64,000 bases of DNA from a bacterium (GCA_963675755.2 CAXXMD010000003.1:2720001-2784000); one strand, 5' to 3'. Positions 19,806 to 48,485 are shown, counted from the first letter of the stretch. Notes: generated by a model not told the origin, from the letters alone. Made by a program: numbers and translations.

Positions 19806-20945
19806 ATGTCCGAAATGTTATTTACTTCAGAATCCGTAACTGAGGGACATCCAGACAAAGTTGCAGATCAAATATCCGATGCGGTACTTGACGCTGCTTT
19901 TACTGATGATCCTATGAGCCGGGTTGCCTGTGAAACATTTGTAACTACAGGTTTGGCCCTGGTTGGTGGTGAAATTACCACCGAAACCTATGTTGACATC
20001 CCTCAGGTCGTCAGAAATACCATTAAAGAAATTGGGTATACTGATGCTTCGTATGGGTTCGATTATGAAACCTGTGCTGTGTTAACAACTATTGATCAGC
20101 AATCTGCTGACATTGCTATGGGTGTAGACAGGGATGGAGCAGGTGACCAGGGAATGATGTTTGGTTTTGCCTGTGATGAAACCCCTGAATTGATGCCTTT
20201 GCCAATTATGTTGGCCCAGCAACTGACTCAGCGTTTGGCCCAGGTGAGAAAAGATGGCCTGGTTTCTTATTTGAGACCTGATGGCAAATCTCAGGTATCT
20301 GTGAATTATGTTGATGGCAAACCTGTCTCAATTGATACTGTTGTGATTTCAACCCAGCATAATCCTGATGCAACCAATGAGCAGATAAGAGAAGATATGA
20401 TTGAAAAAGTTATTCTTCCTGTGCTGCCAAAAGAATTGATTGCCAAAGGTGATCCTGTTTATCATATCAATCCTACCGGTCGTTTTGTTGTTGGCGGTCC
20501 ACAAGGTGATGCAGGATTAACCGGTCGTAAAATTATTGTAGACACCTATGGTGGGTATTCCCGTCATGGCGGTGGTGCTTTCTCGGGCAAAGATCCAACG
20601 AAAGTTGACCGTTCAGCCGCTTATGCATCACGTTATATTGCCAAAAATATTGTTGCAGCCGGTATTGCAACAAAATGCGAAATTCAACTGGCATATGCAA
20701 TTGGTGTTGCAGAACCTGTTTCCATTCATGTGGATACATTTGGTACCGGAAAACTGGCAGATGATGCTATTGTTAAACTGGTACGTGAAAATTTTGATCT
20801 TACCCCCAAAGGTATTATCACCATGCTTGATCTGCGTCGTCCTATTTACAAAGCTACTGCAGCTTATGGTCATTTTGGCCGTACCGGCGATGGTTTTACA
20901 TGGGAAAAAACAGATAAAGCAGATGTATTGAAAAAAAGTTTGTAA
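19806..20945 (+). CDS. metK: S-adenosylmethionine synthetase
   Basis: [35 protein letters not shown]. Confidence 0.98.
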
Positions 20946-22741
<1,796 letters not shown>

Positions 22742-23104
22742 GGTGTAAAACTCTAAACTTTGTAACGTATAGGGGCCAATAGATCACCCTACGGGTAAAC
22801 CCTTGCCCCGGCTCTTGTTTCTTTGATTTATTATTTCCCATAATCGAACTCCCCGCTGCAATTACGACATGCAAATTATAAAAATATTAAATACTTGATA
22901 AAACAGTTGATGCTTTGGATAATTTATTGTATATTATAATGCAAATTTAGTATGCTGTTTTTTGCAATTTTGATTTAGTGTAATGAGTTTCATGTTACTT
23001 TCTAATCCAAAATAATCGTTAAGAATGGTAACACTATTCGGAACGATTTTTTTTTGCCAAGAATAGATATACAAAACATTTATTTATTATAAAGGACACG
23101 TTCA

Positions 23105-23305
23105 ATGGAAAATGGAACTGTCAAATGGTTCAATGGCTCAAAAGGCTATGGTTTTATCACTTCAGAAAGTGGTAGTGATGTATTTGTACATTTTAACGCA
23201 ATCGTAGGTGACGGCTACAAGTCACTTGATGAAGGAGACCGGGTTCAGTTTGAAGTAGAGCAGGGACCCAAAGGACCACAAGCAATTAAAGTTTCAAAGA
23301 TATAA
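23105..23305 (+). CDS. cspA: Cold-shock protein (CspA family)
   Basis: GTVKWFN, KGYGFI (RNP1), DVFVHF (RNP2); AAGGA RBS; TATAAT at 22935-22940 suggests a long 5' UTR. Confidence 0.95.
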
Positions 23306-23392: not shown

Positions 23393-23742
23393 GTGTGGTC
23401 AATATCCACCCTAAAAGATTATTTTATTCAGAATCCAATTAGTGGGCAGGTGGCCAATCCCTGGAGCTTGCACTGGATAATAATCGTCAGGTTATTTATA
23501 CCGCCGGTGCGAGAAAATTCCCTCCGGAAGCTGCAAACACGGCAATGGCCCGGCAATCCGCTGAACGCGCGGCGTTTATTGACGCGTGCCGCTGGGGAGC
23601 CTATGCGCTAAAATGGAAGGATAATCCTGCATCTCCCGATTATGGTGACATACAAGGCAATCTGCCCAACGCAAAGCTGCTGTACAAAATCGGCTCCGGC
23701 AACGGAGTACAGACGGTTGTTGAGATTGGGTTGATGTATTAG
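23393..23742 (+). pseudogene. 5'-truncated, probably frameshifted second copy of the 22217-22741 lipoprotein gene (direct repeat copy 2)
   Basis: Frame of ORF 23545 reads upstream ALDNNRQVIYTAGARKFPPEAANTA vs AFDKNRQVLYTAGAGKFPPEAANSA; in-frame TAG at 23440-23442; no signal peptide. Confidence 0.8.
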
Positions 23743-23760
23743 GGGAGAAGGGAAAAGAGT

Positions 23761-25686
23761 TTAATAGTTATGCTTGGAAGTGTAAAGAATTTTGTGTTTG
23801 TCGTATTCTTTTTTTTCTTTAAATATTTGTGATTTAGGATTAATAATGTCTTCTCTACTGATTAAGTAATGATGTTTTAAAAAAGATTTAATTTTTTGAG
23901 GACAATTTAATTCTTGTATGTTTTGGAATTGATTTATTGCAATTATTTTTTTAGTTATTTCAATTTCGTTTTTCGATAAATTATTGAAATCATCCCACCA
24001 TTTTTGGGTATACCCCTTTTCTTTAAAAAAGAACCTATATAAGATATATGTTTCCGGCATATATAATAGTTTAAAATATTCTTCTTCATTATGACCAAAT
24101 GCTTCATAAAAAAATGATTTACCTTTACCAATTTTACCTTTTGTTGCATTAAGTATTGTCTGTATTGCTCGAATAAATTTTTTATTCCAATGTTTACCAA
24201 TGTAATTTCTGTTTGCGAACCAATTTTGTCCATTGATAGGGTGGTATTTCATTGGAAAAGAATATATGTTTAAATTATATTGTTCACATAATTCAATGTT
24301 AATTTTTAACCGTTGATACAATTCAATTGGTTTATCGTTTTCATTATATAATAAATAATTTGAAAGATTTGTAATTCCATATTTAGCTGCTAGCTCAACA
24401 GCTTTTATATATGTCTTTTCCCACTTCATACTATCAAAAGCGATACGCAATGGTTTTATTGGTATTTCACTTAAAAGTTTCATTTTATATTCGTCAGCAA
24501 CTAAATATCGCGCATCTATCCCTTGGTTAAAATCAACATATCGTTGTTTTGGCATTTTATTTCTATGTTTTTCATAGAGGTCTTTTACTTTAGGATAAAT
24601 TATAATAAGGTTTTCTTTAGTTGATTTATCTTTTGATAATAAGTTTAATGATTTCATTAAGTCATATAGATACTGTTGCTTTGAATTTGGTAGTTTATCA
24701 AGTAAAATGTGTAAAAGATCGTATGATTTATTTATAAATGCTTTGTCATTATAATTTGATTTAAGATTTGCTATTGAAATATCCAATTGATTAGGTTCAA
24801 TATATTTAGAACCTTTTGAGAAACCGCACTCCTTAATTTCTTCAATTATTTGTTCAAAACAATTAGATGCTAAAACATTATTATCTAAGAGTAAAAGATT
24901 TCTTTTTTCACCATATCGTTTTGATGTTGCATTAATTTGTTCTTTAATTGGTATGTAATGTTGGAATTCAGGTTCAAGCTTTGGAACTGCGCAAAAAGCA
25001 CATTGTCGTTTACAACCTCTTGTCATATAACCATAATATGCATTATTTTCTGGATATTTATAATCGATTTCGTCTAGGATTGAATAGTCGAGAGGTAAAG
25101 TGTCAATAATTATTTCATTGTCATCAAGTATTCCTGATTTATCAAGTAAGCCTTCATGAGGTTTAATTCCAGTTTTTTCTTGTAATTCTTTTGCTAAAAC
25201 TGTCGCCAGTACACCACCTACCCAGAGTTCATTTAAATCTTTTACAAGTTTTTTGGCAAACTCAATAGTTTCAATTGTTATTATCCAATGAAAAGTGAAT
25301 AGTGTTGTAATGCAGATTCTGTCCCATTTAGGTTGCTTAAAATAGTGACCTTTTCTGTACAAATTTTTATAATGTTCAAGCCAATAATTTATAGTTATTT
25401 CATATTGTGTTTGTTTTGGTAGTTCAGCCTTAAATGAATTTTTGCCTGTACGGATATATTGGAGTAAACTTGTTTTATAATTTAACCAATCTAATGAGCT
25501 GTCTACTTCATTTAGCGTGGCAATTAACTGATTATTTATATCATTAAGAATGAATTCTTTTAAATCACCTTTATAAAAGGTGACATTGTCACCAAGCATT
25601 CTGTGATAAGAGGCCAACTTCATTAAGCCTATGGGTGGGTATTTATTTTTATAGTTTGGTTCGAGCAGGAGAACGTTTCTTGGCAT
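23761..25686 (-). CDS. Radical SAM protein with N-terminal cobalamin-binding-like domain
   Basis: TRGCKRQCAFC (CxxxCxxC), LLDNN, VDFNQGIDAR; N-terminal VLLLEP...YPPIGLMKLASY...WVGG. Confidence 0.85.
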   Translation of the reverse strand: MPRNVLLLEPNYKNKYPPIGLMKLASYHRMLGDNVTFYKGDLKEFILNDINNQLIATLNEVDSSLDWLNYKTSLLQYIRTGKNSFKAELPKQTQYEITINYWLEHYKNLYRKGHYFKQPKWDRICITTLFTFHWIITIETIEFAKKLVKDLNELWVGGVLATVLAKELQEKTGIKPHEGLLDKSGILDDNEIIIDTLPLDYSILDEIDYKYPENNAYYGYMTRGCKRQCAFCAVPKLEPEFQHYIPIKEQINATSKRYGEKRNLLLLDNNVLASNCFEQIIEEIKECGFSKGSKYIEPNQLDISIANLKSNYNDKAFINKSYDLLHILLDKLPNSKQQYLYDLMKSLNLLSKDKSTKENLIIIYPKVKDLYEKHRNKMPKQRYVDFNQGIDARYLVADEYKMKLLSEIPIKPLRIAFDSMKWEKTYIKAVELAAKYGITNLSNYLLYNENDKPIELYQRLKINIELCEQYNLNIYSFPMKYHPINGQNWFANRNYIGKHWNKKFIRAIQTILNATKGKIGKGKSFFYEAFGHNEEEYFKLLYMPETYILYRFFFKEKGYTQKWWDDFNNLSKNEIEITKKIIAINQFQNIQELNCPQKIKSFLKHHYLISREDIINPKSQIFKEKKEYDKHKILYTSKHNY

Positions 25687-27239
25687 TATTTAAATTCTTC
25701 TTCAATTTTGCATTTTAATTCTTCACCCCTATCTTTTATATCGGGTAACATTAAATCAATTATTTCAAAAACTTTTCTAATGATTTTTTCCTCTTTTTTG
25801 GATAGTTTACTTAGTTTCTGTGAACGATATTTTGTTTTTAAATTTGTATTATTAGTTTTTACTACTTCATCAAAGTTGGTTATTGTTTTTGGATCAACTA
25901 TTTTATTAAATACTCTATTAAGAGCTGGGTTTGAAGAAGCTTTTTCTTCTAACCGTTTAAGATCTTTTTCCTTTTTAATTGCTTCGATTCTGGCTTTTTC
26001 AATATCTTCAATGAATTGTGATTCTTGATTTTTACTTGAAAATGTACCTAAATTTTGTTTTTTTTCATACTCATTTTTAATATTTTTATAATTTTGAATC
26101 CTTTTTACAGCATTTTTAATTTTATTAGCATCATGATATAAACTGTGTAGTTTAGTATAAAAAAAATCTTTTAATTTTTTGTCTAATAAGTTAGATATTT
26201 TGTTTTCGTTAAAATAATCTCGTCGTGAATTAGGAATTAAGTCTGAATGGAAACCATGAATTTCGCCTATAAAGTAAAAATTACCTCTTTGTTCTTTATG
26301 CAATTTTACTAATGTATTTTCTGAACCAATCTGAATATTCCCTTTACGTAGTCTTAATCCACGAGCGCAATTCCCGACAGCAGGTATTTGTTTCTCAAAT
26401 TTTGATATACCGTACCATCCCCATGCAATTATTTCATCTTTATCTTTAATAGTTAATGTTTCTATATCATAAATTTCATCAAATTTTTTATTGTTTGGAG
26501 GTGCACCATCATATAAATAAGTTGAATATGCTTTAAATAATTGCTCTGTGTTAATATAAATACGATATTCATCAAGTGCAAGGTGATTTGCTATTAATCC
26601 TTCATGAATTAAATTTTTAAAAATAAAATGGGAGTTGAAAGGGACTGGGGCAACCATTGACAAATATTCTTCAATATTATTTTTATCCAATAAACTATCG
26701 TTTTTGACATCACACATGATAACTTTAAAATAATGATCATTTTCATCTGCATTGTCTTTGGCAAAATTAATTACAGAATTTACTACAGTTGCTGCATCCA
26801 TATCAATATTACTATCAATTAATTTGTTTTGTAGCTTTTCTGCATCCCAGAGCATAAGATTTTTGACATTTTCACCTTTGAAGCTTGATTCAAAAATAAG
26901 TTTACGACAATACCCCAGACCTCCCAATCTACCTATACCTCTAAATCCTTTGTCTTTTGTTCTATCTTTTGCAGATAGGGCAATATTTGTTAAAGATGAA
27001 GAAAAGTTTTCCGAATTAATGCCTGTTGCATTATCTTCAATAATTATTTGTTTATTATTTTTATCAATAGAAATATGAATGATACCTTCATTTCTATTAG
27101 GAATAATACCAAGCTCAACAGCTTTGTCGATTTGATCTACAGCATTTTGTATATATTCACGATATACAACTCTTGCATCCTCATACATCCCAGATGTCAA
27201 AGTTTCAATAACTGTTTTTCCAATTCTTATATTTGGCAT
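25686..27239 (-). CDS. GHKL-family ATPase (HATPase_c_3; Hsp90/MORC-like) with C-terminal coiled coil
   Basis: REYIQNAVD (motif I), IEDNATGI (motif II), KGFRGIGRLGG (motif III); Lys/Glu-rich helical tail; TAATG overlap with the radical SAM gene. Confidence 0.88.
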   Translation of the reverse strand: MPNIRIGKTVIETLTSGMYEDARVVYREYIQNAVDQIDKAVELGIIPNRNEGIIHISIDKNNKQIIIEDNATGINSENFSSSLTNIALSAKDRTKDKGFRGIGRLGGLGYCRKLIFESSFKGENVKNLMLWDAEKLQNKLIDSNIDMDAATVVNSVINFAKDNADENDHYFKVIMCDVKNDSLLDKNNIEEYLSMVAPVPFNSHFIFKNLIHEGLIANHLALDEYRIYINTEQLFKAYSTYLYDGAPPNNKKFDEIYDIETLTIKDKDEIIAWGWYGISKFEKQIPAVGNCARGLRLRKGNIQIGSENTLVKLHKEQRGNFYFIGEIHGFHSDLIPNSRRDYFNENKISNLLDKKLKDFFYTKLHSLYHDANKIKNAVKRIQNYKNIKNEYEKKQNLGTFSSKNQESQFIEDIEKARIEAIKKEKDLKRLEEKASSNPALNRVFNKIVDPKTITNFDEVVKTNNTNLKTKYRSQKLSKLSKKEEKIIRKVFEIIDLMLPDIKDRGEELKCKIEEEFK

Positions 27240-27243
27240 GATT

Positions 27244-28899
27244 TTACTTAAATTGTTTATATAATGGTTTAGGGAATTTTATATTTAATAGAGAACGAAA
27301 TATTGGATTTTGAATAATATATTCACCCTGTTTCAATCTAGTCATCATATTTTTATATACTGGAGGAATAAATCTATAATCGTTTTTTGATATTTCTATT
27401 GCATTGGTGCGACCATATGCATGTGTTGCACAATTCCCTTTTACTCTATCATGTATTGCACTTTTAAATTGTTCTGCAGAAAATAAAATAATTCCTAGCG
27501 ACCTGCCTCTTTCGGTAATATCAATTATTTGTCTAAGAATTGGTGAATTTTTAGGGATATCATTTGAAGCATATTTATTTAATTCATCAATGAAAATGAT
27601 TATCCTTGATGGGATATCTTCTTCAGGGATTCCGTCAAATTGTCCTAATTTCAAATCATAGACTGCTCTCATTACATCGCCAAAAATAAAACTTTGCATC
27701 CCTTCGTCCAATTTTGCAATATCAATAACAAAAATTTCATTTTTTTTAATTGATTTAATACTATCTTGAAGTCTTGTTTCCCTGTCTTGCTCCGATGCTC
27801 TTAGAGCAAAGATATGATTATTTAACGCTTTACGTACAATTCTTTTAAATTTCCTCCAACTTGCTACTGTTATTTCTTTATCCTTAGAAGAACCTGCTTG
27901 GCAATGTTTATCAATTTCGGCTAAAAATTGATCCCAATTTCTAATATTACCAAAATTTCCTTGTTCTGAAATAATATAATTTATTATTGATTCCATAGTC
28001 TGGGCTGGATCGTCAATGTTAGAGAACAGCAAGTCAAGATTTTCTTTGTCATATTCAAAAATATATTTATACCAATATGCTTTATCTAAGTTCGTTTGAT
28101 GTTCAATGAGGTTTTTATCAGCATAGGTGTTAGTATGAATGTTGTCGGCATATGGATAGAAGTATTTTACATGTTTGAATGGTTCATCGTCTAAACCAAG
28201 GTTTAAATAACATTCTTTATCTATTTTTGAGAGTTCATCGTTTGATTCGTCAATTGCTAATAAATCTTTACCTTTAACATTTAACAGTACAAATGCGACA
28301 TTATCTTCTATTTCCATATTTAAATATTTATATTGAATCGCTTTTAGCAAGAACATTGTATATGATGTTTTTGCTGCTAATCCACTTATGCCAGATATAT
28401 TCATGTGAGCTCCTTCTGGCCCTATTAAAAATTGTGAATTAAGATGTATTGGAAGACTTACCTTTTCGTCACTAGAACTTTCATACATTTCTAAATAGCC
28501 ACAAACTAAAGGATTTTTTATATTATCTAATCCCAATGCTTGTCTAATTTCTTGAGCAGTAGCTAAACTAACAGGTTCTCCATCCCTAACTGGAATGTAT
28601 ATATTTTTAGTATTTCCAACAACTTTTGCCCTAACATAGTTCATACCTATTCGTTGTGTGTTAGGTTGTATATTGACATCTCCAAAGTCATTTGAGATAA
28701 AACTTGTAAGATAACTAGCAGTGTCTGTGATATGTGAAATCTCTTCGACAACTCCGTAAGTTATAGATTCATTAATGTGATTAACTTTAATAACATCAAA
28801 TGGATTTAAAATCATATCCTTTGATGTCCAAAAAAAGAAGTCATCAATGGTTGTTGGATTTTTTTCTGTCGCCGCTATTCTACCAATTATTTTTCCCAT
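27244..28899 (-). CDS. herA: HerA-family ATPase/translocase
   Basis: N-terminal HAS-barrel-like region, Walker A variant HMNISGISGLAAKT, Walker B IIFIDE, ERGRSLG...EQ HerA signature. Confidence 0.88.
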   Translation of the reverse strand: MGKIIGRIAATEKNPTTIDDFFFWTSKDMILNPFDVIKVNHINESITYGVVEEISHITDTASYLTSFISNDFGDVNIQPNTQRIGMNYVRAKVVGNTKNIYIPVRDGEPVSLATAQEIRQALGLDNIKNPLVCGYLEMYESSSDEKVSLPIHLNSQFLIGPEGAHMNISGISGLAAKTSYTMFLLKAIQYKYLNMEIEDNVAFVLLNVKGKDLLAIDESNDELSKIDKECYLNLGLDDEPFKHVKYFYPYADNIHTNTYADKNLIEHQTNLDKAYWYKYIFEYDKENLDLLFSNIDDPAQTMESIINYIISEQGNFGNIRNWDQFLAEIDKHCQAGSSKDKEITVASWRKFKRIVRKALNNHIFALRASEQDRETRLQDSIKSIKKNEIFVIDIAKLDEGMQSFIFGDVMRAVYDLKLGQFDGIPEEDIPSRIIIFIDELNKYASNDIPKNSPILRQIIDITERGRSLGIILFSAEQFKSAIHDRVKGNCATHAYGRTNAIEISKNDYRFIPPVYKNMMTRLKQGEYIIQNPIFRSLLNIKFPKPLYKQFK

Positions 28900-28914
28900 A
28901 AATTATCCCTATTT

Positions 28915-30081
28915 TTAAAAAAGATTTAAAAAGTATTCATTACTTAAATATTTGCTTTTAATGAATACTTCTGTTAGGTAGACAGGATATAAGTGATTAG
29001 CCCAACGATTATCTTTGCCGTAGCAAACGGGATTTCTTTCATTTATAAGATTTGCACTAATAGTGTCAATTTCTTCAGTTTTTAAACCATATTTTTGTTC
29101 TTGCTCAGAAATTAATATCTTTTCAACTTTAATTATTCCTTCAAATGGGCTTGAAGTATATTTTGCATCTCTAATGCGTAAATACCATATTGAAAATTTT
29201 ACATTTCCTTCAGTCCCTCTTGAAACTTTTGATTCCCACATAAATGCTGGTGTCCGATGATATAATTTTAGTTCAGCAATCTTCTGGGCATTACTATGTC
29301 CTCGAGCATCAATGCACTTTTCTGGATTAAATGATTTTGAAACACCTACTACACATTTGTAGTTACTTTTTATTATTGATAAATCTTTAAAATCACCAGT
29401 TTTCATTGTTTTATACTCTAAAGAACCGTCTTTTAATAAATATGAATCCTCATTGAGTAAATTTTTATAAACAAGAGAAGAAACTATTCTTTTCTCCTGT
29501 TCAATCATTTCATCTTGTATTTTTGCTATTCCAAGGTTTTCATATTTTTCACCTATTTGTAGTTTAATATCAGCATAATCCAATATTTTGCTAAAATTTA
29601 AGCCACGTGTTTTGATGAAATTCTGTTCATTGATTTTGGTTACTAAATTATTAAAGAACAATTTTTTTTTGTTGTCTTTTGATGCATTTTCTGGAACTGC
29701 CATTACTAATTGGTGTTCAATTAGTTTACTTTTTAAATTTTTTCTTTTATCTCGTTCACAACACCCAACTCCTATTTGGCCAGCAATAATCGGGTAAACA
29801 CGGTTATCATAAGCCATATCATCTACTTTATATGTTCTTCTGGAGCCATCAAGAAAATATTTGAAAAGTGGTTGTGAAAATTTTTCTATTTGTTTAGACT
29901 TGTTATAAAGGTGACGAGGAGATGTGATTTTTTCTGATTCACCATATTGCTTTAATGTAAGATTTGGTTGGTCATCATATACTAAATGGGGCATTTCTAT
30001 CCCATCGAAACAATATTTATGAGTTTTATAACTTTTCCCACTTGTTTCAGTTTCAACAAAAGACAATATTTTGTTCAACAT
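28915..30081 (-). CDS. nurA: NurA-like (RNase H-fold) nuclease
   Basis: FLDGS, MIEQE, LLKDGSL, VGVSKS, NHLYPVYLTE motifs in NurA order; directly upstream of herA. Confidence 0.75.
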   Translation of the reverse strand: MLNKILSFVETETSGKSYKTHKYCFDGIEMPHLVYDDQPNLTLKQYGESEKITSPRHLYNKSKQIEKFSQPLFKYFLDGSRRTYKVDDMAYDNRVYPIIAGQIGVGCCERDKRKNLKSKLIEHQLVMAVPENASKDNKKKLFFNNLVTKINEQNFIKTRGLNFSKILDYADIKLQIGEKYENLGIAKIQDEMIEQEKRIVSSLVYKNLLNEDSYLLKDGSLEYKTMKTGDFKDLSIIKSNYKCVVGVSKSFNPEKCIDARGHSNAQKIAELKLYHRTPAFMWESKVSRGTEGNVKFSIWYLRIRDAKYTSSPFEGIIKVEKILISEQEQKYGLKTEEIDTISANLINERNPVCYGKDNRWANHLYPVYLTEVFIKSKYLSNEYFLNLF

Positions 30082-30266
30082 GTAACCTTCATTTTTAAAA
30101 TCTCAAATGTATGAAAATACGACAAAAAAGATCAAGTATAATATTGTATTATGTTATTTATTGAGTATGAAAAAATAAAATTCACCCCCTCCCAATAATC
30201 AATTATCACTAAATAAAGTGAAAATCCGTAAAAGAAGCAAGATAAATTTAAAATTATAAATCCCGA

Positions 30267-30665
30267 TTATACCCAGTTTTCCACTTTTATCCCTGAAACA
30301 CGATTAAATTCTTTGGTGTTGGCGGTTAACATGATCAGTTTGTGTCTTTTGGCTTGGGCAGCTATCAACAGGTCATTTGCGCCAATGATTTGGCCCTTTA
30401 TTTCAAGCTCTGCACGGATGTTGCCATATTCCATTGCATCCGTGCTGTCAAAATCCAGGATGGTAAGGGGAGAGAGGATTTTTAGTACCGCAGTGAGATT
30501 TTTGGATTTGTGCTGACTTTTTTTCGCCCCGTATATCAGTTCCGCAACAGTGATTGACGATACCCCAAAATCTCGAATGTCTTTACTGGTAAATTTTTTT
30601 TCGAGTGATTTAGATTTTGAATTCATCAAATAGATGAGAATGTTCGTATCAACAAGATATTTCAT
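30267..30665 (-). CDS. vapC: VapC PIN-domain toxin
   Basis: YLVDTNI, SSITVAELIYG, IGANDLLIAAQA, TANTKEF. Confidence 0.95.
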   Translation of the reverse strand: MKYLVDTNILIYLMNSKSKSLEKKFTSKDIRDFGVSSITVAELIYGAKKSQHKSKNLTAVLKILSPLTILDFDSTDAMEYGNIRAELEIKGQIIGANDLLIAAQAKRHKLIMLTANTKEFNRVSGIKVENWV

Positions 30666-30883
30666 TACATTTTGATTTCGGTTAAATTTAAATCATCAAC
30701 ATCCGGAAAATCAACAGCTTCATGTATACCTTCAACAAAATTTGTCCAGGGATCGTCTTGCGGTAAAAGTACCAGTAAATTACCGATTTTATTAATATTA
30801 ACCGTGTCAGCATCCAACCTGTATTCTTTGGGCAAACGTATTGCCTGGCTGTTTCCGGATTGGAAAATTTTTGTAGTTTTCAT
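30665..30883 (-). CDS. vapB: VapB (AbrB/VagC-type) antitoxin
   Basis: TKIFQSGNSQAIRLPKEYR; TAATG overlap with vapC. Confidence 0.95.
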   Translation of the reverse strand: MKTTKIFQSGNSQAIRLPKEYRLDADTVNINKIGNLLVLLPQDDPWTNFVEGIHEAVDFPDVDDLNLTEIKM

Positions 30884-30893
30884 TTTACACCTC

Positions 30894-30935
30894 TTGTATA
30901 TACATGAATATATACAAATAAGGCCCTAAATGCAA
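30894..30935 (-). promoter_or_regulatory. vapBC promoter with overlapping palindromic operator
   Basis: TTGCAT-N17-TATATT on the minus strand; perfect 9-bp inverted repeat TTGTATATA-CATGAA-TATATACAA (30894-30917) over the -10. Confidence 0.75.
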
Positions 30936-30975
30936 GAAATTATTTGTTTATATATTTTATTGAATGGGAAAGAAT

Positions 30976-31000
30976 CATGGCGGGCCATTGGCCCACCATG
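30976..31000. repeat. REP-like palindrome / possible terminator
   Basis: CATGGCGGGCCA-T-TGGCCCACCATG; related to 39219-39245, 22767-22792 and 23390-23412. Confidence 0.5.
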
Positions 31001-31019
31001 TATTGGGGAAAAGGGTACT

Positions 31020-31922
31020 CTAGTTCATTGGTTGGTTTCTAAATTCTATGGGACTCATGCCCACTTCTTTTTTAAACAAGCGGGAAAAGTAGGGCTGGTT
31101 TTCAAAACCTAGCTCATGAGCAATATCGGCAATGCTTTTATTATCTGCAATTAGCATGTTTTTCGCTTGTGAAACAACATGCAAATGGATCAATTCAAGG
31201 GCTGTTTTGCCTGTTTCATGTTTCAACAAGTCGCTCATGTATTTGGGAGAGATATAAAGTTGCTCGGCCATATATTTAACGGAGGGCAAGCCTTTTTCTT
31301 CAGCCTCGCCGCTTTCAAAATACGAGTTTAAATGCTCGGTGAATTTTGTTACGGTTGAACCCGAGAGTTGTTTACGGTCAATAAACTGACGCTTGTAAAA
31401 GCGTTGAGCGTATTTTAACAGGGTGTCCAGATGAGAGAGAATGATTGTTTTGCTGAATTCATCGGGATTGTTGTAATACTCCATTTTTATCTTGTTGTAT
31501 ACAGACCACATGATCTCTTTTTCTCTGGGAGTAAGGTGGAGTGCCTCATTAATTTCATAATCAAAAAAGTTGTATTTTTTGATTTCATTATACAACGGAT
31601 GACCTATTAAATAATCTTCATGCAGGTAGATTGAAAATCCATCTTCCTTAATTACCACATCGTGAATGGATAGCTTTTGTCTGGGTTTGAAAAAATACAT
31701 GAATCCTTTATTGCTGTCATATTTTGTTTTCCCATACAAAAATTCACCGCTTTCAACTTTTTTAAAGCACATAACATAAAAGTTATAAGAGACCTGTTGG
31801 TTTATCAGGCAGGTGCTGCAACTATTGAATTCTACCAACCCTAAAAAAGGATTTTCAGGGGCTGGTGCACCTTCATGTTCGTACAGGTCACCAATATTTT
31901 CAAAATGTAACAAATTTTCCAT
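31020..31922 (-). CDS. AraC-family transcriptional regulator
   Basis: C-terminal double HTH: LPSVKYMAEQL.ISPKYMSDLLK, IAHELGFENQPYFSRLFKKEVG. Confidence 0.93.
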   Translation of the reverse strand: MENLLHFENIGDLYEHEGAPAPENPFLGLVEFNSCSTCLINQQVSYNFYVMCFKKVESGEFLYGKTKYDSNKGFMYFFKPRQKLSIHDVVIKEDGFSIYLHEDYLIGHPLYNEIKKYNFFDYEINEALHLTPREKEIMWSVYNKIKMEYYNNPDEFSKTIILSHLDTLLKYAQRFYKRQFIDRKQLSGSTVTKFTEHLNSYFESGEAEEKGLPSVKYMAEQLYISPKYMSDLLKHETGKTALELIHLHVVSQAKNMLIADNKSIADIAHELGFENQPYFSRLFKKEVGMSPIEFRNQPMN

Positions 31923-32027
31923 AACTCACACCTTGTGTATTTCCATTCATACTTATACTACAAATAATGTAATTAAATTAAAATAAAATTCTGCTTTTTT
32001 CCTCAAAATCGAGTCCTTAAAACCCTG

Positions 32028-32065
32028 CGCATCAAATCACCAATGATGTATTGGGATTTGATGCG
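32028..32065 (-). terminator. Stem-loop after the alcohol dehydrogenase gene
   Basis: CGCATCAAATC...GATTTGATGCG 11-bp inverted repeat. Confidence 0.6.
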
Positions 32066-32103
32066 TACAGAGTAAAAATTCAAGCATGTTTCTATTCAAA
32101 AAA

Positions 32104-33279
32104 TTAGAATGTTGCTGTGTCAATCACATATCTATAACGGGCTTTTTTATCAACCACATTTTCCCATGCTTTATTGATTTGTTCAGCACTTATCATCTGA
32201 ATTTCTGGTTTCACATTGTTATCCGCACAATAATGAACAACTTCCTGGGTTTCAGGAATTCCACCAATCAGAGAAGCATTAAAATTAACACGAGATGCTG
32301 CCAACGCAATGTTGCTCAGATTGATTTGAAAACCTTCCGGCATGCCTACATAGGTGAAATTTCCATACGGTTTTACACAGGCAACATACGGTGCCGCGTT
32401 AAACTGGTAAGGAATGGTACAAATCATATAATCCAGTTTTTTGTTGTATGGCTGCATGCTGGTAAATTTGTCATCTACTACTATAACTTCTTTGGCACCC
32501 CACGATTTTATATCATCAACCTTGTCGGGTGAGGTTGTAAATGCATAAACTTCAGCACCTTTGGAAACAGCCAGTTTAACGGCCATGTGTCCCAGTCCAC
32601 CAATACCGGCAACACCTACTTTGTCTCCAATTTTAAAATCTTCTTTCATTAACGGAGAGTATGTGGTAATACCCGCACATAAAAGCGGAGCCGCTTCCTG
32701 AAGGCTTATGTGGTCAGGAATGTGGACAGCAAAGTGGTCCCTAACAACAATGTTGGTAGAGTATCCGCCCTGGGTAATGCCCGTGGGTGAGTTCTTGTCG
32801 GGATATCCGTATGTGAACAATGTTTGTCCATTTTCACAATAGTGTTCATCACCATGATTACAGCTGTCGCATTCCATACAACTGTCTACCATACATCCCA
32901 CACCGGCACGGTCACCCACTTTGAATTTGGTAACATTTTTACCAACCGCTGCAACAATACCTACAATTTCATGACCCGGAACCTGAGGATATTTTTGCGG
33001 ACCCCAGTGTCCTTTCATCTGATGGATGTCAGAGTGGCAAATACTTGCATATTTGATATCAATGAGTACATCATTATCGCCAACGGGTCTGCGTTCAAAC
33101 TCCCAGGGGCTCAATACACCCGAAGTGTCTTTTGCGGCATAACCCTTTGATTTTATATTTTGAGACATGTTATTATCCTTTGCTCCAATGGTGTTAGTTG
33201 CTGCGAACATGATTCCTGTACCTAATGCAGCAGATTGTTGTACAAATTTTCTTCTTGAAATATTATCATCTTTTTTCAT
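32104..33279 (-). CDS. Zn-dependent NAD(P) alcohol dehydrogenase (cinnamyl-ADH/YahK-like) with Tat-like N-terminal extension
   Basis: CHSD, GHEIVG, C-x2-C-x2-C-x7-C structural Zn site, APLLCAGITTY, GIGGLG; N-terminal SRRKFVQ. Confidence 0.92.
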   Translation of the reverse strand: MKKDDNISRRKFVQQSAALGTGIMFAATNTIGAKDNNMSQNIKSKGYAAKDTSGVLSPWEFERRPVGDNDVLIDIKYASICHSDIHQMKGHWGPQKYPQVPGHEIVGIVAAVGKNVTKFKVGDRAGVGCMVDSCMECDSCNHGDEHYCENGQTLFTYGYPDKNSPTGITQGGYSTNIVVRDHFAVHIPDHISLQEAAPLLCAGITTYSPLMKEDFKIGDKVGVAGIGGLGHMAVKLAVSKGAEVYAFTTSPDKVDDIKSWGAKEVIVVDDKFTSMQPYNKKLDYMICTIPYQFNAAPYVACVKPYGNFTYVGMPEGFQINLSNIALAASRVNFNASLIGGIPETQEVVHYCADNNVKPEIQMISAEQINKAWENVVDKKARYRYVIDTATF

Positions 33280-33297
33280 AATTTTCTCCAAAATGAA

Positions 33298-33675
33298 TTA
33301 CTTTTTTACAATTTTAACTGTCGTTGAGCGGGCACGATCACCAATCATAGACCCAAGGTATGGGCTGGTGCTATACTTTGCACGATAAGCCTTATTAATC
33401 GAGTCGTTGAGATTGGCATCTGCGTCTGCCTGTTCAAATATCACTTTGTGGGTCATACCCGCGGTAGTGATACGTCCGGCTTTTTGAGAAATGGCTGATT
33501 TGTACCAACTGGAATTTTTGCCATTATACGCGCGTACATAGAGTTCATTATCAACTACAACAGACCAGATCCAGGTTGGTGTACCATAGGTTACACCGTC
33601 AGCTCGAAAGGGAGAGATGTGCAAATCATCAGAGCTGCTTATTTTTATTAATTCATCTTTTGCCCAATTTGCCAT
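33298..33675 (-). CDS. DUF2255-family protein
   Basis: DDLHISPFRADG.TYGTPTWIWSV...LYVRAYNG..S.WY. Confidence 0.8.
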   Translation of the reverse strand: MANWAKDELIKISSSDDLHISPFRADGVTYGTPTWIWSVVVDNELYVRAYNGKNSSWYKSAISQKAGRITTAGMTHKVIFEQADADANLNDSINKAYRAKYSTSPYLGSMIGDRARSTTVKIVKK

Positions 33676-33690
33676 GATCTCACATTCCTT

Positions 33691-34179
33691 TTATAAATTA
33701 CTATACTCTTTATCAGTTACAGGTTCCATCCAGTTTACTATGCCTTTTTCCGTATTGGGTACAATATAGATATGACTCATGCCCTGATCTTTGGATGCAC
33801 CATGCCAGTGGATGGTATCTGGCGGACATTTTACAACATCGCCTTTACGGATAATCTCGATGGGATGTCCTTTAATCTGGTGATAGCCCACACCTTCGGT
33901 TACGATCAATATCTACCCACTGGGATGAGAGTGCCAGTTGCTTCTGGCACCGGCTTCAAAAAATACATTGCCGGCAGCTGTTGTAAAAACAGAGTCATTG
34001 TTCACCAGACCGGTAACCCATGCATTTCCAGTGAAAAACTTTTCAGGTGCCAGTTGTCCTTTAGGAAAAATCGAGCTTTGTTCTAACGTACTGGTCGAGT
34101 CCTCAATTTTTTGGCAGCCCTGATTTATAACTGCAAAAACCATTGTTGTAAAAATGATTGCTATTTTGAATCTATTCAT
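33691..34179 (-). pseudogene. Cupin-domain lipoprotein interrupted by one in-frame TAG
   Basis: Reads WHSHPSG-TAG(33915-33913)-ILIVTEGVGYHQ in one frame; the paralog at 35683-36084 has Q at that position. Confidence 0.85.
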
Positions 34180-34200
34180 ATGACTATCCTTTGCTTTTTT

Positions 34201-34662
34201 TTATTCAACTAACATGATGCTGACATTTAAAGAATTTTTCGAACTTAATTCTTGAATACCTTGTTCTATTTTTCCAAGATTAATGAGCCCGCTGGCATAG
34301 CCAAAATCTTTGTAAAATATTGCCAAATTACCCCAGGGCGCATAATATGTGATATCTCCAACGGAGGGATCATAACCTGCGGGAGCATTTTTCGTTGTTA
34401 GTTTTTTTGGCAGATCGCTTACTTTTTCTGTACCGGCGTAATCTTTTAATTCAAGATCTAACGGAAGCAAAGAAATAAAATCTCTTGTTGTGGGGGTATC
34501 TTGCAATGTAGCATAAAGTGTGGTATCTTGGCCTACTATTTTAATCTTATATTGTTTAGAATCATCCATTGTATTGCCTTTTACAATCTGTTCATTATTG
34601 CAATTAAGAGCAAGTAAAACCAGTAAAATCAATTTTACTATATATTGTATTTTTATATTCAT
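34201..34662 (-). CDS. Cyclophilin-like fold lipoprotein
   Basis: LALNC lipobox; ATL.D..T.RDF...LPL, GDITYYAPWGNLAIFY. Confidence 0.82.
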   Translation of the reverse strand: MNIKIQYIVKLILLVLLALNCNNEQIVKGNTMDDSKQYKIKIVGQDTTLYATLQDTPTTRDFISLLPLDLELKDYAGTEKVSDLPKKLTTKNAPAGYDPSVGDITYYAPWGNLAIFYKDFGYASGLINLGKIEQGIQELSSKNSLNVSIMLVE

Positions 34663-34773
34663 TATTTTTTAAGACATTGAATTATCATGTTTGTTCAATT
34701 TTAAAAGAGCCTCTAAAAATTGTACCTGATTAATAGTCTCTAGAGACTCATGCAGTCAGTTTAATGTTAGTTT

Positions 34774-35640
34774 TTATTCCATTTTGCCGCCATATACTGG
34801 AAACATACTGGCTTCTCCATAATCTTTGATTGTTTCCAGGTTTTTCAACTGTTCCATGTCTTCCGGTGAAATCTCAAAATCTACCTCTGCATTATTTTTC
34901 ATATGTTCAGGATTTGCAGTTTTGGGTAACGGAAGCATATCCAGTTCAAGACAGTATCGAATAGACAACTGTGGTACGGATACACCATATTTTTCGGCCA
35001 TTTTAGAGATTTTTTCATTTTTCATCAATTCACCATGAGCAACAGGGGAGTAGGCTTCTACAAGAATGCCATTATCCTGACAGTATTGAATCAGTTCTTT
35101 GGGTGTATTGCTTATATGTGCCAAAATTTGATTCACCATGGGTTTAACCGTGCAGGATTCAAGAATATTATCTATGTCTGCTTTTTCAAAGTTTGAAATT
35201 CCTATAGAACGCAGCTTTCCTGCTTTATAGGCGTCTTCTAACGCTCTCCAGGCTTCACGATTGCCTTCAAGGTAGGAATCATCTTTGTGGAATTCCATCC
35301 AGGGTTTGGGACTGTGAATAATCATCAGGTCAATATAATCGAGTCCTAATGTCTTGAGAGAATTGTCTATGGATGCAACTGCTTCATTATACGACTTTAC
35401 TTCCGCGGCAAGTTTTGTGGTTACAAACAATTCTTCTCTTTTAACGCCACAGGTTCTTATGCCTTCACCAACACCGTTTTCATTTTGATATGCCTGAGCT
35501 GTATCGATATGTCTGTAACCTAAATTTACTGCATCTTTGACGGCCTGTACAGAATCCTGATCACTGATAAACCAGGTCCCCAGACCCAGCTTGGGAATCT
35601 CTACGCCATTGGATAGTGTATATGTTTCTTTTAAAATCAT
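34774..35640 (-). CDS. Aldo/keto reductase (2,5-diketo-D-gluconate reductase-like)
   Basis: GLGTW, GYRHIDTAQAY, FVTTKL, IHSP, IGISNF, LPKT. Confidence 0.95.
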   Translation of the reverse strand: MILKETYTLSNGVEIPKLGLGTWFISDQDSVQAVKDAVNLGYRHIDTAQAYQNENGVGEGIRTCGVKREELFVTTKLAAEVKSYNEAVASIDNSLKTLGLDYIDLMIIHSPKPWMEFHKDDSYLEGNREAWRALEDAYKAGKLRSIGISNFEKADIDNILESCTVKPMVNQILAHISNTPKELIQYCQDNGILVEAYSPVAHGELMKNEKISKMAEKYGVSVPQLSIRYCLELDMLPLPKTANPEHMKNNAEVDFEISPEDMEQLKNLETIKDYGEASMFPVYGGKME

Positions 35641-35682
35641 TTCAATATCTCCTATATAAAAGTTTAGCTTTTTAATTTTGTT

Positions 35683-36084
35683 TTATGCACCAAGTTTTGC
35701 ATATTCTTCGTCAGTAACAGGACCGCGCCATTCTGTTGTTGCACCTTCAACCGGTACGGTTAAAGCGATATGTGCAAACCAACTATCTTTGGTTGCGCCA
35801 TGCCAGTGATTCACTCCAACAGGTATGTTTACTACGTCTCCTGGTTTTAACCGTTGTGCAGGTTTACCTTCTTCCTGGTACCAGCCTTCACCTGCTGTAC
35901 AGAAAAGAATTTGTCCACCTTTATCATGTATATGCCAGTTGTTACGGCATCCCGGTTCAAAGGTTATATTAAAAGCAGGTACACCTTCAAGTGTTAATAC
36001 TGATATATAGCTTTGTCCTATAAAGTAATCTGCATAGGCATCGTTCTTTTGTCCTAATGGAAAGATTTGCTTAAATTCACTCAT
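35683..36084 (-). CDS. Cupin-domain protein
   Basis: FEPGCRNNWHIH...GQIL...GDVV.IP.G..HWHGA. Confidence 0.92.
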   Translation of the reverse strand: MSEFKQIFPLGQKNDAYADYFIGQSYISVLTLEGVPAFNITFEPGCRNNWHIHDKGGQILFCTAGEGWYQEEGKPAQRLKPGDVVNIPVGVNHWHGATKDSWFAHIALTVPVEGATTEWRGPVTDEEYAKLGA

Positions 36085-36105
36085 TATATATTCTCCTTTA
36101 AATTA

Positions 36106-36867
36106 TTATTTATTCTCGGGTATTACTTTATTGATACAACCTAGTGCGTTTAACGTTCTTGGAAAACCCATATAGGGTAAACATTGCGTAATTGCTGAAA
36201 TCATGGCGTTTTTATCGTTTCCTGCATTTAAATTGCCAAAAACATGAGATTCTACCTGGCTTTCACATCCTCCCATAGCACTGAGAATACACAATGTCAA
36301 CAATTCACGAGTCTTAACATCCAAAGTTCCTCGAGTATAGACATCTCCAAAACAAAAGGCTGATAAATAATTTTGTATATGTTTCTGATTATCTGGTGCG
36401 TTTTGATGCATTTGGTCTATTATATCGTCAAAGATGGATTTCTGGACCGCCAAGCCTTTATCGAATCGGGTTTCTTCGGTAACCTGCTTTTGGCTTTTCA
36501 CCGGAAGGGAGATGTTGGCAGTTTTAAAAATCTCATTAACCTGTTGAATCGCATCCAGTGTTTTAGGGAAACCCAAATAAGGTGTACATTGATAAATAGC
36601 TTCCTTTATTTCAACAGGTGATGCACCAATGTTCAATGCCGCCCAAACGTGTGCTTTTAATTGGTTCAAGTTTTGATTTGTGGCTAAAACAACCAAGGTT
36701 ATTAACTCTCTCAGCTTGTCTGTTAAATTTCCTTGATAAAAAACCTCGCCGAAAATAAAATTGTTCAGCATTTCCTGAATATCCGGATCTGTTTCAGCTA
36801 ACGGTCCGGTATGGTTACCAAACAGCTCATTAAATTTTTCCTGACTTTTTTCAACTCTATTTTTCAT
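36106..36867 (-). CDS. Carboxymuconolactone decarboxylase (CMD/AhpD) family protein, two domains
   Basis: Duplicated FG......L....RELITL...PY.GFP repeats. Confidence 0.9.
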   Translation of the reverse strand: MKNRVEKSQEKFNELFGNHTGPLAETDPDIQEMLNNFIFGEVFYQGNLTDKLRELITLVVLATNQNLNQLKAHVWAALNIGASPVEIKEAIYQCTPYLGFPKTLDAIQQVNEIFKTANISLPVKSQKQVTEETRFDKGLAVQKSIFDDIIDQMHQNAPDNQKHIQNYLSAFCFGDVYTRGTLDVKTRELLTLCILSAMGGCESQVESHVFGNLNAGNDKNAMISAITQCLPYMGFPRTLNALGCINKVIPENK

Positions 36868-36890
36868 ATTTCACCTGTAATAATTTCATA

Positions 36891-37382: not shown

Positions 37383-37388
37383 TTTTCC

Positions 37389-37958: not shown

Positions 37959-38046
37959 TTATCATCACGGGTTTCGGGTTAAATTATTTGTATTGGATTT
38001 AAGTAAAAAAACAGATTTAGTTCCTTTTTTGAAAATTCCGAAACAA

Positions 38047-39218: not shown

Positions 39219-39245
39219 ATAGGGTGAACCGTTGGCCCACCCTAT
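39219..39245. repeat. REP-like palindrome / possible terminator
   Basis: ATAGGGTG-AACCGTTGGCC-CACCCTAT. Confidence 0.5.
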
Positions 39246-39255
39246 GATTTTAAAT

Positions 39256-47400: not shown

Positions 47401-47413
47401 TTATAACCCCTGT

Positions 47414-48472: not shown

Positions 48473-48485
48473 TTAGTGCCCCTAT

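Follow-up and report, generated by a model that had tools for sequence, protein, structure and literature searches.

What do a NurA nuclease, a HerA-type ATPase, a GHKL ATPase and a radical SAM (rSAM) enzyme accomplish when they are encoded side by side, and could they form a restriction–modification-like (R-M-like) defence system? The question is raised by a cassette of four genes in a bacterial window of 64,000 nucleotides (GCA_963675755.2 CAXXMD010000003.1:2720001-2784000), the whole stretch of DNA that we analysed, where the cassette and its borders have the following layout.

28915..30081, minus strand: NurA nuclease, 388 aa; ORF with a Foldseek fold match; first gene of the cassette
27244..28899, minus strand: HerA-type ATPase of the hexameric translocase kind, 551 aa; ORF matching PDB 7f6d_B
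25686..27239, minus strand: GHKL ATPase, 517 aa; ORF matching Pfam HATPase_c_3
23761..25686, minus strand: rSAM enzyme, 641 aa; ORF with CxxxCxxC motif and fold
30082..30266, minus strand: spacer between vapC and NurA, 185 nt by coordinates; presumed promoter region of the cassette
30267-30883: vapBC, a PIN protein (1.3e-22) and a MazE-type antitoxin
22469-22743 and 23470-23744: duplicated fragment, two copies with 87% identity across 275 nt

A preliminary description had presented four co-oriented, tightly packed genes, and the ORF coordinates agree, with gaps of 15 and 4 nt at the first two junctions and, at the third, a 1-nt overlap in which the rSAM start lies on the GHKL stop. The AT-richness that it noted is also evident, as the GC content is 0.26–0.30 across positions 24000–29999, compared to 0.40–0.45 across positions 20000–22999, which hold metK and ahcY. 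Of the two borders that it named, vapBC was found in place. The duplicated fragment is real, but its tie to insertion is not; the same duplicate is present in a same-genus genome (G001) and it is therefore not a scar of the cassette’s arrival. A functional link to the adjoining metK and ahcY was ruled out as well, as the cassette DNA is missing from the same-genus genome. A sigma-70 scan found 45 sites, compared to a shuffle mean of 45.0, and with no excess no promoter was called. Four holders, all in one study, are listed among sequencing runs, and none of those listed is RNA.

We assigned the four proteins by Foldseek, PDB and Pfam matches, which returned the same four types that had been proposed, and found that their catalytic motifs are invariant across relatives (31 NurA, 30 HerA, 28 GHKL and 19 rSAM sequences). 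The AlphaFold model of the first protein (pLDDT 86.8) has D. radiodurans NurA as its best match (7f6d_G, E 4.7e-13, TMt 0.63), with further matches to T. maritima 1zup (8.9e-11), S. solfataricus NurA (2ygk, 3e-7) and chain G of TdpAB (8wfd, 6.6e-6). The modelled fold confirms that it is a NurA of the bacterial, RNase-H-like type seen in drNurA and tmNurA; the 7f6d_G and 1zup proteins are named bacterial NurA in the cited portion of PMC9960219. At the level of sequence, a Pfam search returned no family at E ≤ 0.1, including NurA PF09376, the family profile reached drNurA weakly (E 0.013), and PF09376 is found on 16% of the members of a neighbouring ESM Atlas cluster. Residues D78-G79, D218-G219-S220 and G246..K249 are invariant in 31 sequences, as are E196, E320 and H363, which may share a catalytic role with D78 and D218.

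The second protein matches D. radiodurans HerA (7f6d_B) at E 1.1e-32, or 1.8e-51 by profile, and has in common with it the P-loop NISGISG.A.KTSY and the motifs DELNKYA and ERGRSLGIIL. Across 30 sequences, G170-I-S-G-L-A-x-K177-T-S, D438-E439, E463-R-G-R466 and Q477 are invariant. The P-loop, Walker B and arginine finger are all kept, in the unusual form of the D. radiodurans complex, which places the protein among FtsK-HerA ATPases of the Deinococcus type. The pairwise distance matrices of NurA and HerA covary (r = 0.94) and their genes are adjacent; the two may form a physical 6:2 complex whose activities depend on each other. The D. radiodurans end-resection complex (7f6d; tmNurA, 1zup) has the same NurA fold and likewise has nurA directly upstream of herA; unlike it, the cassette’s pair is joined to GHKL and rSAM genes, is mobile and patchy, and occupies no core repair locus. 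This closest solved relative is described as a repair complex in the cited portion of PMC9960219, a role that counts against an R-M-like reading.

The third protein matches Pfam HATPase_c_3 above its cut-off (5.8e-12, 46.2 bits), with invariant ATP-binding residues E28, N32, D35, D69, G73, G98, G101 and G103 in 28 sequences. Its earlier label of ‘MORC-like’ is not supported: the solved relatives closest to the family profile are HtpG (3.2e-15) and then Hsp90 N-domains, and neither MORC nor MutL appears among the best 60 of 156 PDB matches. A MORC-specific motif in the S5-fold domain has been described, according to the cited portion of PMC2292703. The GHKL family comprises 640 cluster representatives at E ≤ 1e-30. 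It is the least conserved of the four proteins (mean pairwise distance 0.65, compared to 0.42–0.56 for the others), its C-terminal tail is variable and K/E-rich, and in many loci the tblastn match stops near residue 380. A predicted complex of rSAM with GHKL residues 1–359 scored 0.16 against a mark of 0.32, in a calculation without controls.

The fourth protein has the CxxxCxxC motif and partial TIM barrel of the radical SAM superfamily, with a Pfam Radical_SAM match (3e-6, 27.9 bits) slightly below the 29.5 cut-off. Its model (pLDDT 85.9) consists of an N-terminal Rossmann domain resembling a B12 domain, an rSAM barrel with C225xxxC229xxC232 and a helical C-terminal domain, and these three cysteines are the only invariant ones in 19 sequences. 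Foldseek matched the model to MgmA (9ccb, 2.8e-7), TsrM, AprD4, MiaB, OxsB, CysS and TokK, with low TM-scores of 0.25–0.55. The two-domain fold and CxxxCxxC site are therefore like those of class B (cobalamin) rSAM enzymes and their look-alikes (MgmA, TsrM, OxsB, TokK, CysS; AprD4; MiaB/RimO), whereas the large helical insertion, the C-terminal helical domain, the low TM-scores, the missing second cysteine cluster and the genomic partners, which are DNA enzymes, set it apart. The ‘B12-type’ label draws on the fold, which resembles TsrM, OxsB, TokK, CysS and MgmA, but the Pfam search found no B12-binding domain, AprD4 and MiaB score about equally, and an NCBIfam B12/rSAM model matches weakly (E 0.034). 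Judging by the model, the enzyme possibly uses cobalamin.

Two identities were rejected for this enzyme. A methylthiotransferase (MiaB/RimO) was ruled out by the lack of a second three-cysteine cluster and of any TRAM or UPF0004 Pfam match, with the RimO model far below its cut-off (E 0.0013), and a viperin was ruled out as the PADLOC viperin models gave no match. The matched enzymes act on protein (MgmA), on small molecules (TsrM, AprD4, OxsB, CysS and TokK) or on tRNA (MiaB), and the substrate of OxsB is a deoxyadenosine phosphate. Such substrates among the nearest structural matches count against an R-M-like reading, and so does the failure to recognise a DNA-binding domain in this protein. 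Of 8000 scored candidates, 7610 were rSAM homologues, nearly all without names, and no longer fused protein carrying rSAM appeared at E ≤ 1e-10, which is weak evidence.

The order of the four genes is conserved whether loci are selected by rSAM or by HerA, as the preliminary description had asked to be checked. NurA, HerA and GHKL genes lie in the same order in 56 of the 62 rSAM-selected genome loci that have at least 5 kb upstream. Among HerA-selected metagenome loci, NurA is upstream in 68 of 68, GHKL is present in 69 of 69 and rSAM is downstream in 67 of 69; of the two exceptions, one carries an inserted gene pair and then runs off its contig, and the other is a decayed cassette. Pairwise distance matrices, compared between the four proteins, give correlations of r = 0.65–0.94 in 52 loci, values reached by 0 of 999 permutations. 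Because the gene order is conserved in hundreds of unrelated genomes, the arrangement is far beyond chance.

The cassette is also mobile and patchily distributed. It is present in about 15 phylum-level groups and at least 512 species-level genomes, and the carriers are, by record titles, mostly gut, rumen and sediment bacteria, from groups known as anaerobes. Of 40 related genomes, a single one matches the cassette, and then in part, while a complete same-genus genome gives no match; synteny with the same-genus genome is broken at window position 23743 and restored near 39308, and the cassette occurs once, in variable DNA that is AT-rich. The rSAM gene tree cuts across species taxonomy, with phyla intermixed and near-identical copies in Parabacteroides, Alistipes and Odoribacter. 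Several loci lie beside genes for a relaxase, MobC, TraG or an integrase; L005, L008, L019 and L046 have relaxase, MobC and TraG neighbours, and a relaxase-family ORF cluster lies near L056, L058 and L061. The full cassette is present in 7 of the 35 IMG/VR loci examined. Seven phage records match rSAM, and only one of them covers at least 80% of it, an unannotated 8.9-kb ‘Bacteriophage sp.’ fragment with 52% rSAM identity.

Comparing variant loci, we found that GHKL and rSAM are the constant core and that the nuclease arm is swappable. In alphaproteobacterial plasmids, a PIN_8 nuclease and a GHKL protein are encoded with a DndB-like protein, rSAM (29–33% identity) and GHKL (35% identity), and IMG/VR relatives combine a ParB_N-like protein, an SNF2 helicase and sometimes a DndB-like protein with rSAM and GHKL. 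Several rSAM modules have no NurA-HerA at all, namely L009 and L036 (both GHKL2-c6-rSAM), L062 (GHKL-rSAM) and L070 (rSAM alone), and these are scattered within the four-gene clade of the rSAM tree. The ‘GHKL-rSAM’ tree labels of L047 and L050 are ORF-caller artefacts, as both loci have NurA and HerA by tblastn. Conversely, no intact NurA-HerA-GHKL without rSAM was found among the HerA-selected metagenome loci. The loci were drawn from the best 80 matches and five or six of them bear on this asymmetry, a small basis that counts against an R-M-like reading. The same can be said of the four-gene form, which has no DndB-like or ParB-like partner, and of the c6 protein (330 aa) of the six-gene form, which has no similarity to the DndB-like protein (hhalign probability 0.1). 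This c6 protein has no Pfam match and no PDB match of note; it matches the NCBIfam PP_RS20740 family weakly, in 7 of 7 members (best E 3.9e-7).

Is the neighbourhood one of defence, and is the system already named? PADLOC hits (E ≤ 1e-8) lie within three flanking genes in 17 of 35 loci, or in 14 of 35 once three loci with only non-specific-looking hits are dropped, both counts being without background control. They include AbiEi/Eii, SoFic, SpbK-TIR, Lamassu LmuB/C, RmrA and PDC-S01/02/05/19, in keeping with the expectation of a defence-rich context; housekeeping genes are the sole flanks in roughly ten of the 35 loci, which counts against an R-M-like reading. The reported lack of a classical methyltransferase or restriction enzyme extends to the family: no ORF cluster of that kind is common to the 80 loci, and Pfam found neither enzyme in 135 flanking proteins. 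With PADLOC-DB 2.0.0 (2023), which covers viperin, SIR2-HerA, MADS, Tiamat and Mza, HerA (P0002) weakly hit the mad8 model only (3.3e-9), and P0001, P0003 and P0004 had no hit at E ≤ 0.1. Openly licensed full texts and bioRxiv preprints held no description of NurA-HerA with GHKL and rSAM, a search in which a recent name may be missed. The four-gene cassette is apparently unnamed, as had been suggested.

Several known systems resemble parts of it. In the Tdp phosphorothioate system (TdpC and TdpAB; 8wfd, 8wet), TdpA is HerA-like and unmarked DNA is degraded by TdpAB, whose chain G matches the cassette’s NurA. The tdpC gene alone yields the mark (PMC12914056), and TdpABC is listed with phosphorothioate-based R-M systems (PMC13223576). 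In contrast to Tdp, the cassette has no TdpC or Dnd-type gene, its candidate marker is rSAM with a GHKL partner, and a search with its HerA profile fails to recover TdpA at E ≤ 0.1. The cited portion of PMC5365140 describes the tdtA operon of Thermus thermophilus ICETh1 as Type IIG Tth111II, a NurA-like gene, TdtA and an N4/N6 methylase, which is likewise a four-gene operon in a low-GC mobile element that joins NurA and a HerA-like ATPase with DNA-recognising or -modifying genes. Here, however, GHKL and rSAM replace the restriction enzyme and methylase, and the role described for the ICETh1 operon in that portion is DNA donation, not defence. SIR2-HerA, DUF4297-HerA and MADS also pair a HerA-family ATPase with an effector in defence islands, and mad8 resembles the cassette’s HerA; unlike them, the cassette has no SIR2, DUF4297 or other mad proteins, it has NurA as its effector and needs another two enzymes. 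The DndB-like (PF14072), ParB_N-like and SNF2 neighbours of the distant rSAM-GHKL relatives recall Dnd and Dpd loci, and DndH variants contain HerA/FtsK domains, according to the cited portion of PMC10853773, whereas the cassette lacks any Dnd or Dpd catalytic gene.

Most likely, the cassette is directed at foreign DNA, by chemistry new to such systems. The specific mechanism that we prefer, which we consider plausible though somewhat short of probable, is a self-contained, mobile R-M-like defence cassette in which DNA is the substrate of rSAM and any unprotected DNA is degraded by NurA-HerA. The GHKL ATPase would clamp or scan DNA and hand it to rSAM, which, via a 5′-deoxyadenosyl radical and possibly cobalamin, would mark the host’s own DNA. 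NurA-HerA, licensed through GHKL, would then load on mark-free DNA, or wherever linear DNA enters with free ends, and degrade it; the targets would be incoming phage, plasmid or conjugative element DNA. Three findings lend an R-M-like system indirect support: NurA-HerA-type pairs adjoin DNA-modification genes elsewhere (ICETh1, in the cited portion of PMC5365140, and TdpAB by fold match), rSAM modules occur without NurA-HerA and the reverse is essentially never seen, and distant rSAM relatives adjoin DndB-like and ParB-like proteins. The more specific proposal, that rSAM with GHKL writes a radical-chemistry mark, which could be methylation of an unactivated base or sugar carbon or the addition of some other group there, and that NurA-HerA shreds mark-free DNA, is possible but rather unlikely.

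The evidence from mobility, neighbourhood and module swapping applies equally to defence without self-marking, where GHKL would sense infection, rSAM would make a nucleotide-derived inhibitor or signal (as viperin or OxsB) or modify a protein of the system or invader, and NurA-HerA would then degrade DNA. A sensor would fit the poorly conserved GHKL and its variable tail, and the structural matches of rSAM include OxsB and the protein methylase MgmA. However, the PADLOC viperin models miss rSAM, an effector that forms a product has no need for a DNA translocase-nuclease, and the DndB-like and ParB-like partners of distant relatives suggest DNA. Furthermore, the GHKL-rSAM and GHKL2-c6-rSAM forms without a recognised nuclease, together with the lone rSAM, better suit a harmless marking module. 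We consider this alternative doubtful.

The remaining explanations set defence aside. The transfer genes beside the loci listed above and the full cassettes in IMG/VR loci would agree with a DNA-processing or donation module that serves the transfer or maintenance of mobile elements, as do TdtA and NurA of ICETh1, where efficient transjugation depends on the NurA-like gene, TdtA and the Type IIG enzyme, which share an operon with the N4/N6 methylase (PMC5365140, in the portion cited). This explanation is improbable; most loci, including the window, have no transfer genes within reach, the cassette’s HerA is of the Deinococcus type, and defence cargo is common on conjugative elements, so that adjacency does not discriminate. 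A role in the DNA repair of anaerobes, with rSAM, in the manner of spore photoproduct lyase, reversing or processing a lesion, a MutL-like GHKL and end resection by NurA-HerA, would match both the mostly anaerobic groups of the carriers and the closest solved relatives, the end-resection complex of D. radiodurans (PMC9960219, in the portion cited). It is very improbable for a single-copy cassette in AT-rich variable DNA that is missing in 39 of 40 relatives, same genus included, and whose phylogeny is discordant with taxonomy, whose nuclease arm swaps for PIN_8, and whose neighbours are defence and mobile-element genes, with no repair genes.

If the cassette acts in defence, it is a widespread new member, with many of its carriers among gut and rumen anaerobes. 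To our knowledge, the radical SAM class is known in defence solely from viperins. If rSAM does write a radical-chemistry mark, this would be the first R-M system with a radical SAM enzyme as its ‘methylase’, and hundreds of anaerobic species would carry an undescribed natural DNA modification, which would bear on gut-bacterial epigenomics and on sequencing-based detection of modified bases. Two testable questions follow: whether bacterial NurA-HerA acts mainly against foreign DNA, with repair the lesser role, and whether radical SAM chemistry is a DNA-marking or DNA-damaging part of immunity. The modular family, with its rSAM-GHKL core and exchangeable nuclease arms, provides natural experimental controls.

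On the window's minus strand, the four genes follow one another head to tail, in the order NurA, HerA, GHKL ATPase and radical SAM enzyme (rSAM):

28915-30081, minus strand, ORF for NurA (P0001), 388 aa
27244-28899, minus strand, ORF for HerA (P0002), 551 aa
25686-27239, minus strand, ORF for the GHKL ATPase (P0003), 517 aa
23761-25686, minus strand, ORF for rSAM (P0004), 641 aa

The ORF coordinates bear out the junctions of 15 nt and 4 nt, followed by a 1-nt overlap, that the preliminary description had reported. The cassette is also AT-rich as described, with a GC content of 0.26-0.30 across its four genes versus 0.40-0.45 across metK/ahcY, and alignments show that the catalytic or nucleotide-binding residues noted earlier are invariant among relatives for all four proteins.

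We found no match to P0001 in Pfam, PADLOC or NCBIfam, and its family profile (31 relatives) reaches D. radiodurans NurA at just E 0.013. The top Foldseek match of its AlphaFold model (pLDDT 86.8) is the NurA chain of the D. radiodurans HerA-NurA complex (7f6d_G, E 4.7e-13), with T. maritima TM1739 (1zup), S. solfataricus NurA (2ygk) and TdpAB chain G (8wfd) among the other top matches. The 7f6d_G and 1zup proteins are named bacterial-type NurA in PMC9960219, and on its predicted structure, which settles the identity, P0001 is a bacterial-type NurA. P0002 is similar in sequence to D. radiodurans HerA (E 1.1e-32, or 1.8e-51 by profile) and shares with it an unusual P-loop (NISGISG.A.KTSY), the Walker B motif DELNKYA and the motif ERGRSLGIIL. 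By fold and sequence, this half of the cassette belongs to the bacterial NurA-HerA family, whose translocase, according to PMC9960219, feeds ends of double-stranded DNA to a dimeric nuclease.

P0003 matches HATPase_c_3 (Pfam, 5.8e-12) and is, as judged from its sequence, a GHKL ATPase whose last ~135 residues are unconserved at many loci. The label 'MORC-like' is not supported: among the 60 listed of 156 PDB matches, the family profile comes closest to HtpG and Hsp90 N-domains, and neither MORC nor MutL appears. In P0004, C225xxxC229xxC232 is invariant and there is no further invariant cysteine. Its model (pLDDT 85.9) resembles enzymes that join an N-terminal Rossmann domain to a radical SAM barrel, and Foldseek matches it to MgmA, TsrM, OxsB, CysS, TokK, AprD4, MiaB and RimO at low TM-scores (0.25-0.55); cobalamin appears in the PDB titles of several of the first five. 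Pfam finds no B12-binding domain in P0004. Given the low scores and this result, the earlier term 'B12-type' stands as a description of the fold, but not as a shown cofactor.

The four genes constitute a unit. The rSAM belongs to a large family: 7610 of 8000 scored candidates are significant, and the best 120, at 57-75% identity, represent many phyla and are nearly all annotated as hypothetical. A scan with one genome per species confirmed at least 512 places, of which the best 80 were kept; among these, 62 loci extend 5 kb or more upstream of rSAM. NurA, HerA and GHKL precede rSAM in the window's order at 56 of the 62, so that the four-gene order is conserved. GHKL alone is upstream at three loci (L009, L036 and L062), all three genes are absent at two (L070 and the truncated L024), and one locus (L029) is a decayed remnant. 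A HerA-based metagenome scan confirmed at least 588 places; among the best 80, which were kept, NurA is upstream at 68/68 loci with room for it, GHKL is downstream at 69/69 and rSAM at 67/69. At one of the two loci without rSAM (L104), the contig ends past an inserted gene pair and an additional copy of GHKL; at the other (L144), GHKL is truncated and unrelated ORFs come next. Across 52 complete loci, the pairwise distances of the four proteins correlate with r of 0.65 to 0.94 (0 of 999 permutations as high), HerA being the most conserved (lowest mean distance, 0.42) and GHKL the least (highest, 0.65).

Several variants of this unit were found. A six-gene form, NurA-HerA-GHKL-GHKL2-c6-rSAM, carries a second GHKL gene (GHKL2) and a gene for a 330-aa protein (c6); it is complete at genome loci L001, L010 and L019, reaches a contig end at L018 and recurs in metagenomes (L099, L170). 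The reduced forms, GHKL2-c6-rSAM at L009 and L036, GHKL-rSAM at L062 and a lone rSAM amid housekeeping genes at L070, look like losses because they are scattered inside the four-gene clade of the rSAM tree. Among the 35 IMG/VR loci examined, of 80 kept, seven hold the whole cassette. More distant rSAM relatives (29-33% identity, covering at least 80% of the protein in 10 of 13 records) are carried by alphaproteobacterial plasmids. On pNL1 (L096:4081-14483), the order is PIN_8 nuclease, GHKL, DndB-like, rSAM and a GHKL 35% identical to P0003, and on IMG/VR contigs of the same second clade it is a ParB_N-like gene, a 140-aa gene, an SNF2 helicase, a 335-aa gene, a DndB-like gene in some cases, rSAM and GHKL. 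This second rSAM-GHKL clade, seen on plasmids and IMG/VR contigs (L096, L095, L187, L191-L195), appears to be unnamed. Both clades keep rSAM and GHKL constant but differ in nuclease arm and in DNA-binding accessories; nuclease arms are exchangeable.

The cassette is also horizontally mobile. Each of its genes is single-copy in the source genome. Of 40 related genomes, 39 show no match, and the remaining one has a partial match at the edge of a contig. Among those without a match is G001, a complete genome from the same genus. It lines up with the window as far as base 23742 and then from ~39308 onward, with ~4.2 kb of other DNA in place of the intervening 15.5 kb (23743-39307). Cassette holders span ~15 phylum-level groups by record titles. 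In the rSAM tree, an Akkermansia copy and one Bacteroidaceae copy are nested amid Bacillota copies, and an Ignavibacterium copy pairs with a Bacteroidales copy. The cassettes of Parabacteroides, Alistipes and Odoribacter (L056, L058 and L061) are almost identical (terminal branches 0.003-0.009), indicating that the cassette passed from family to family very recently. Relaxase-family genes lie near these three loci.

Within the window, the variable 15.5 kb also holds an AraC regulator gene, dehydrogenase and reductase genes, a CMD-family gene and a flavodoxin-like gene (36891-37382). The vapBC module described earlier is present directly upstream, at 30267-30883 on the minus strand, as a PIN toxin gene, vapC (1.3e-22), and a MazE/AbrB-type antitoxin gene, co-oriented with the cassette. 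A terminator-like hairpin (31000-30976) precedes this pair, so the pair and the cassette may share one transcript; in the flank comparison, its position beside the cassette is not conserved at other loci. The duplicated fragment reported at the other border is real, a 275-nt direct duplicate, 87% identical, at 22469-22743 and 23470-23744, but it predates the cassette, since it also occurs in G001 on the shared side of the synteny break. It derives from the 3′ end of a lipoprotein-like gene (22202-22741), and a cold-shock protein gene (23105-23305) separates the two copies. Farther along the window, the ORF list shows eight tandem minus-strand ORFs of 639-919 aa, several near 730 aa (45196-63932), which may be a paralogous array.

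Cassette flanks vary among loci, and defence and mobile-element genes often accompany the cassette. We sampled 135 flanking proteins from 35 loci, out of an initial 150 taken from the 209 that were eligible at 52 loci; Pfam matches include relaxase, MobC, TraG, integrases, AbiEi/Eii, Fic, TIR, Schlafen-AlbA_2, AAA_14-DUF4143 and ABC-3C parts, together with ordinary housekeeping genes. PADLOC matches (E<=1e-8) occur in the flanks of 17 of the 35 loci as a raw count, and of 14 after discounting three that look non-specific (cyclase domain, topoisomerase, HTH). Two further arrangements were observed. An AAA_15/AAA_21 ATPase gene and a 265-269-aa gene are inserted within the cassette at differing junctions, and resemble another small system lodged inside it. 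At 12 Prevotella/Bacteroidales-type loci, a large same-strand ORF (394-967 aa as called, median 832) follows rSAM, directly adjoining it in most; it has RNA-polymerase-alpha-CTD-like and sigma-70 region-4-like helix-turn-helix domains, and could serve this lineage as a fifth component.

L002:6257-8442, ATPase and 265-269-aa insert
L006:44-2219, ATPase and 265-269-aa insert
L104:10202-12374, ATPase and 265-269-aa insert
L039:11949-14849, large ORF after rSAM
L043:13892-16387, large ORF after rSAM
L065:11976-14441, large ORF after rSAM

The whole cassette is outside every system tested. PADLOC 2.0.0 (2023) returned just a mad8 match, to HerA, and the cassette holds no SIR2, DUF4297, Dnd, Dpd or viperin component and, in agreement with the preliminary description, none of classical restriction-modification. 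The NurA-HerA-GHKL-rSAM combination is not described in the CC-licensed PMC and bioRxiv papers searched. Two precedents place a NurA-HerA-type pair next to genes for DNA modification. The Thermus ICETh1 operon (PMC5365140) reads Type IIG enzyme, NurA, TdtA and N4/N6 methylase, a NurA-HerA-type pair adjoining DNA-modification genes. TdpAB, whose chain G matches the fold of P0001, is listed as phosphorothioate-based restriction-modification (PMC13223576), with tdpC as the only marking gene (PMC12914056).

We tentatively propose, as the likeliest of four readings though at less than even odds, that the GHKL-rSAM pair could act on DNA, that rSAM would mark the host's DNA, and that NurA-HerA would destroy incoming DNA that is unmarked or free-ended. 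This marking reading draws on an asymmetry seen at few loci, whereby rSAM modules occur alone and intact nuclease arms do not, on the DndB-like and ParB-like partners in relatives, and on the two precedents, ICETh1 and TdpAB. Against it, the enzymes structurally closest to P0004 have proteins, small molecules or tRNA as their substrates, rSAM contains no recognised DNA-binding domain, and the asymmetry rests on those few loci. A sensor-effector defence that operates without self-marking is rather unlikely, though it retains an appreciable chance. It is improbable that the cassette serves DNA donation or processing for mobile elements, and quite improbable that it is a DNA-repair pathway.

We class the cassette with the HerA/NurA-armed systems linked to DNA modification. 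If its rSAM proves to mark DNA, the cassette would become categorically new.
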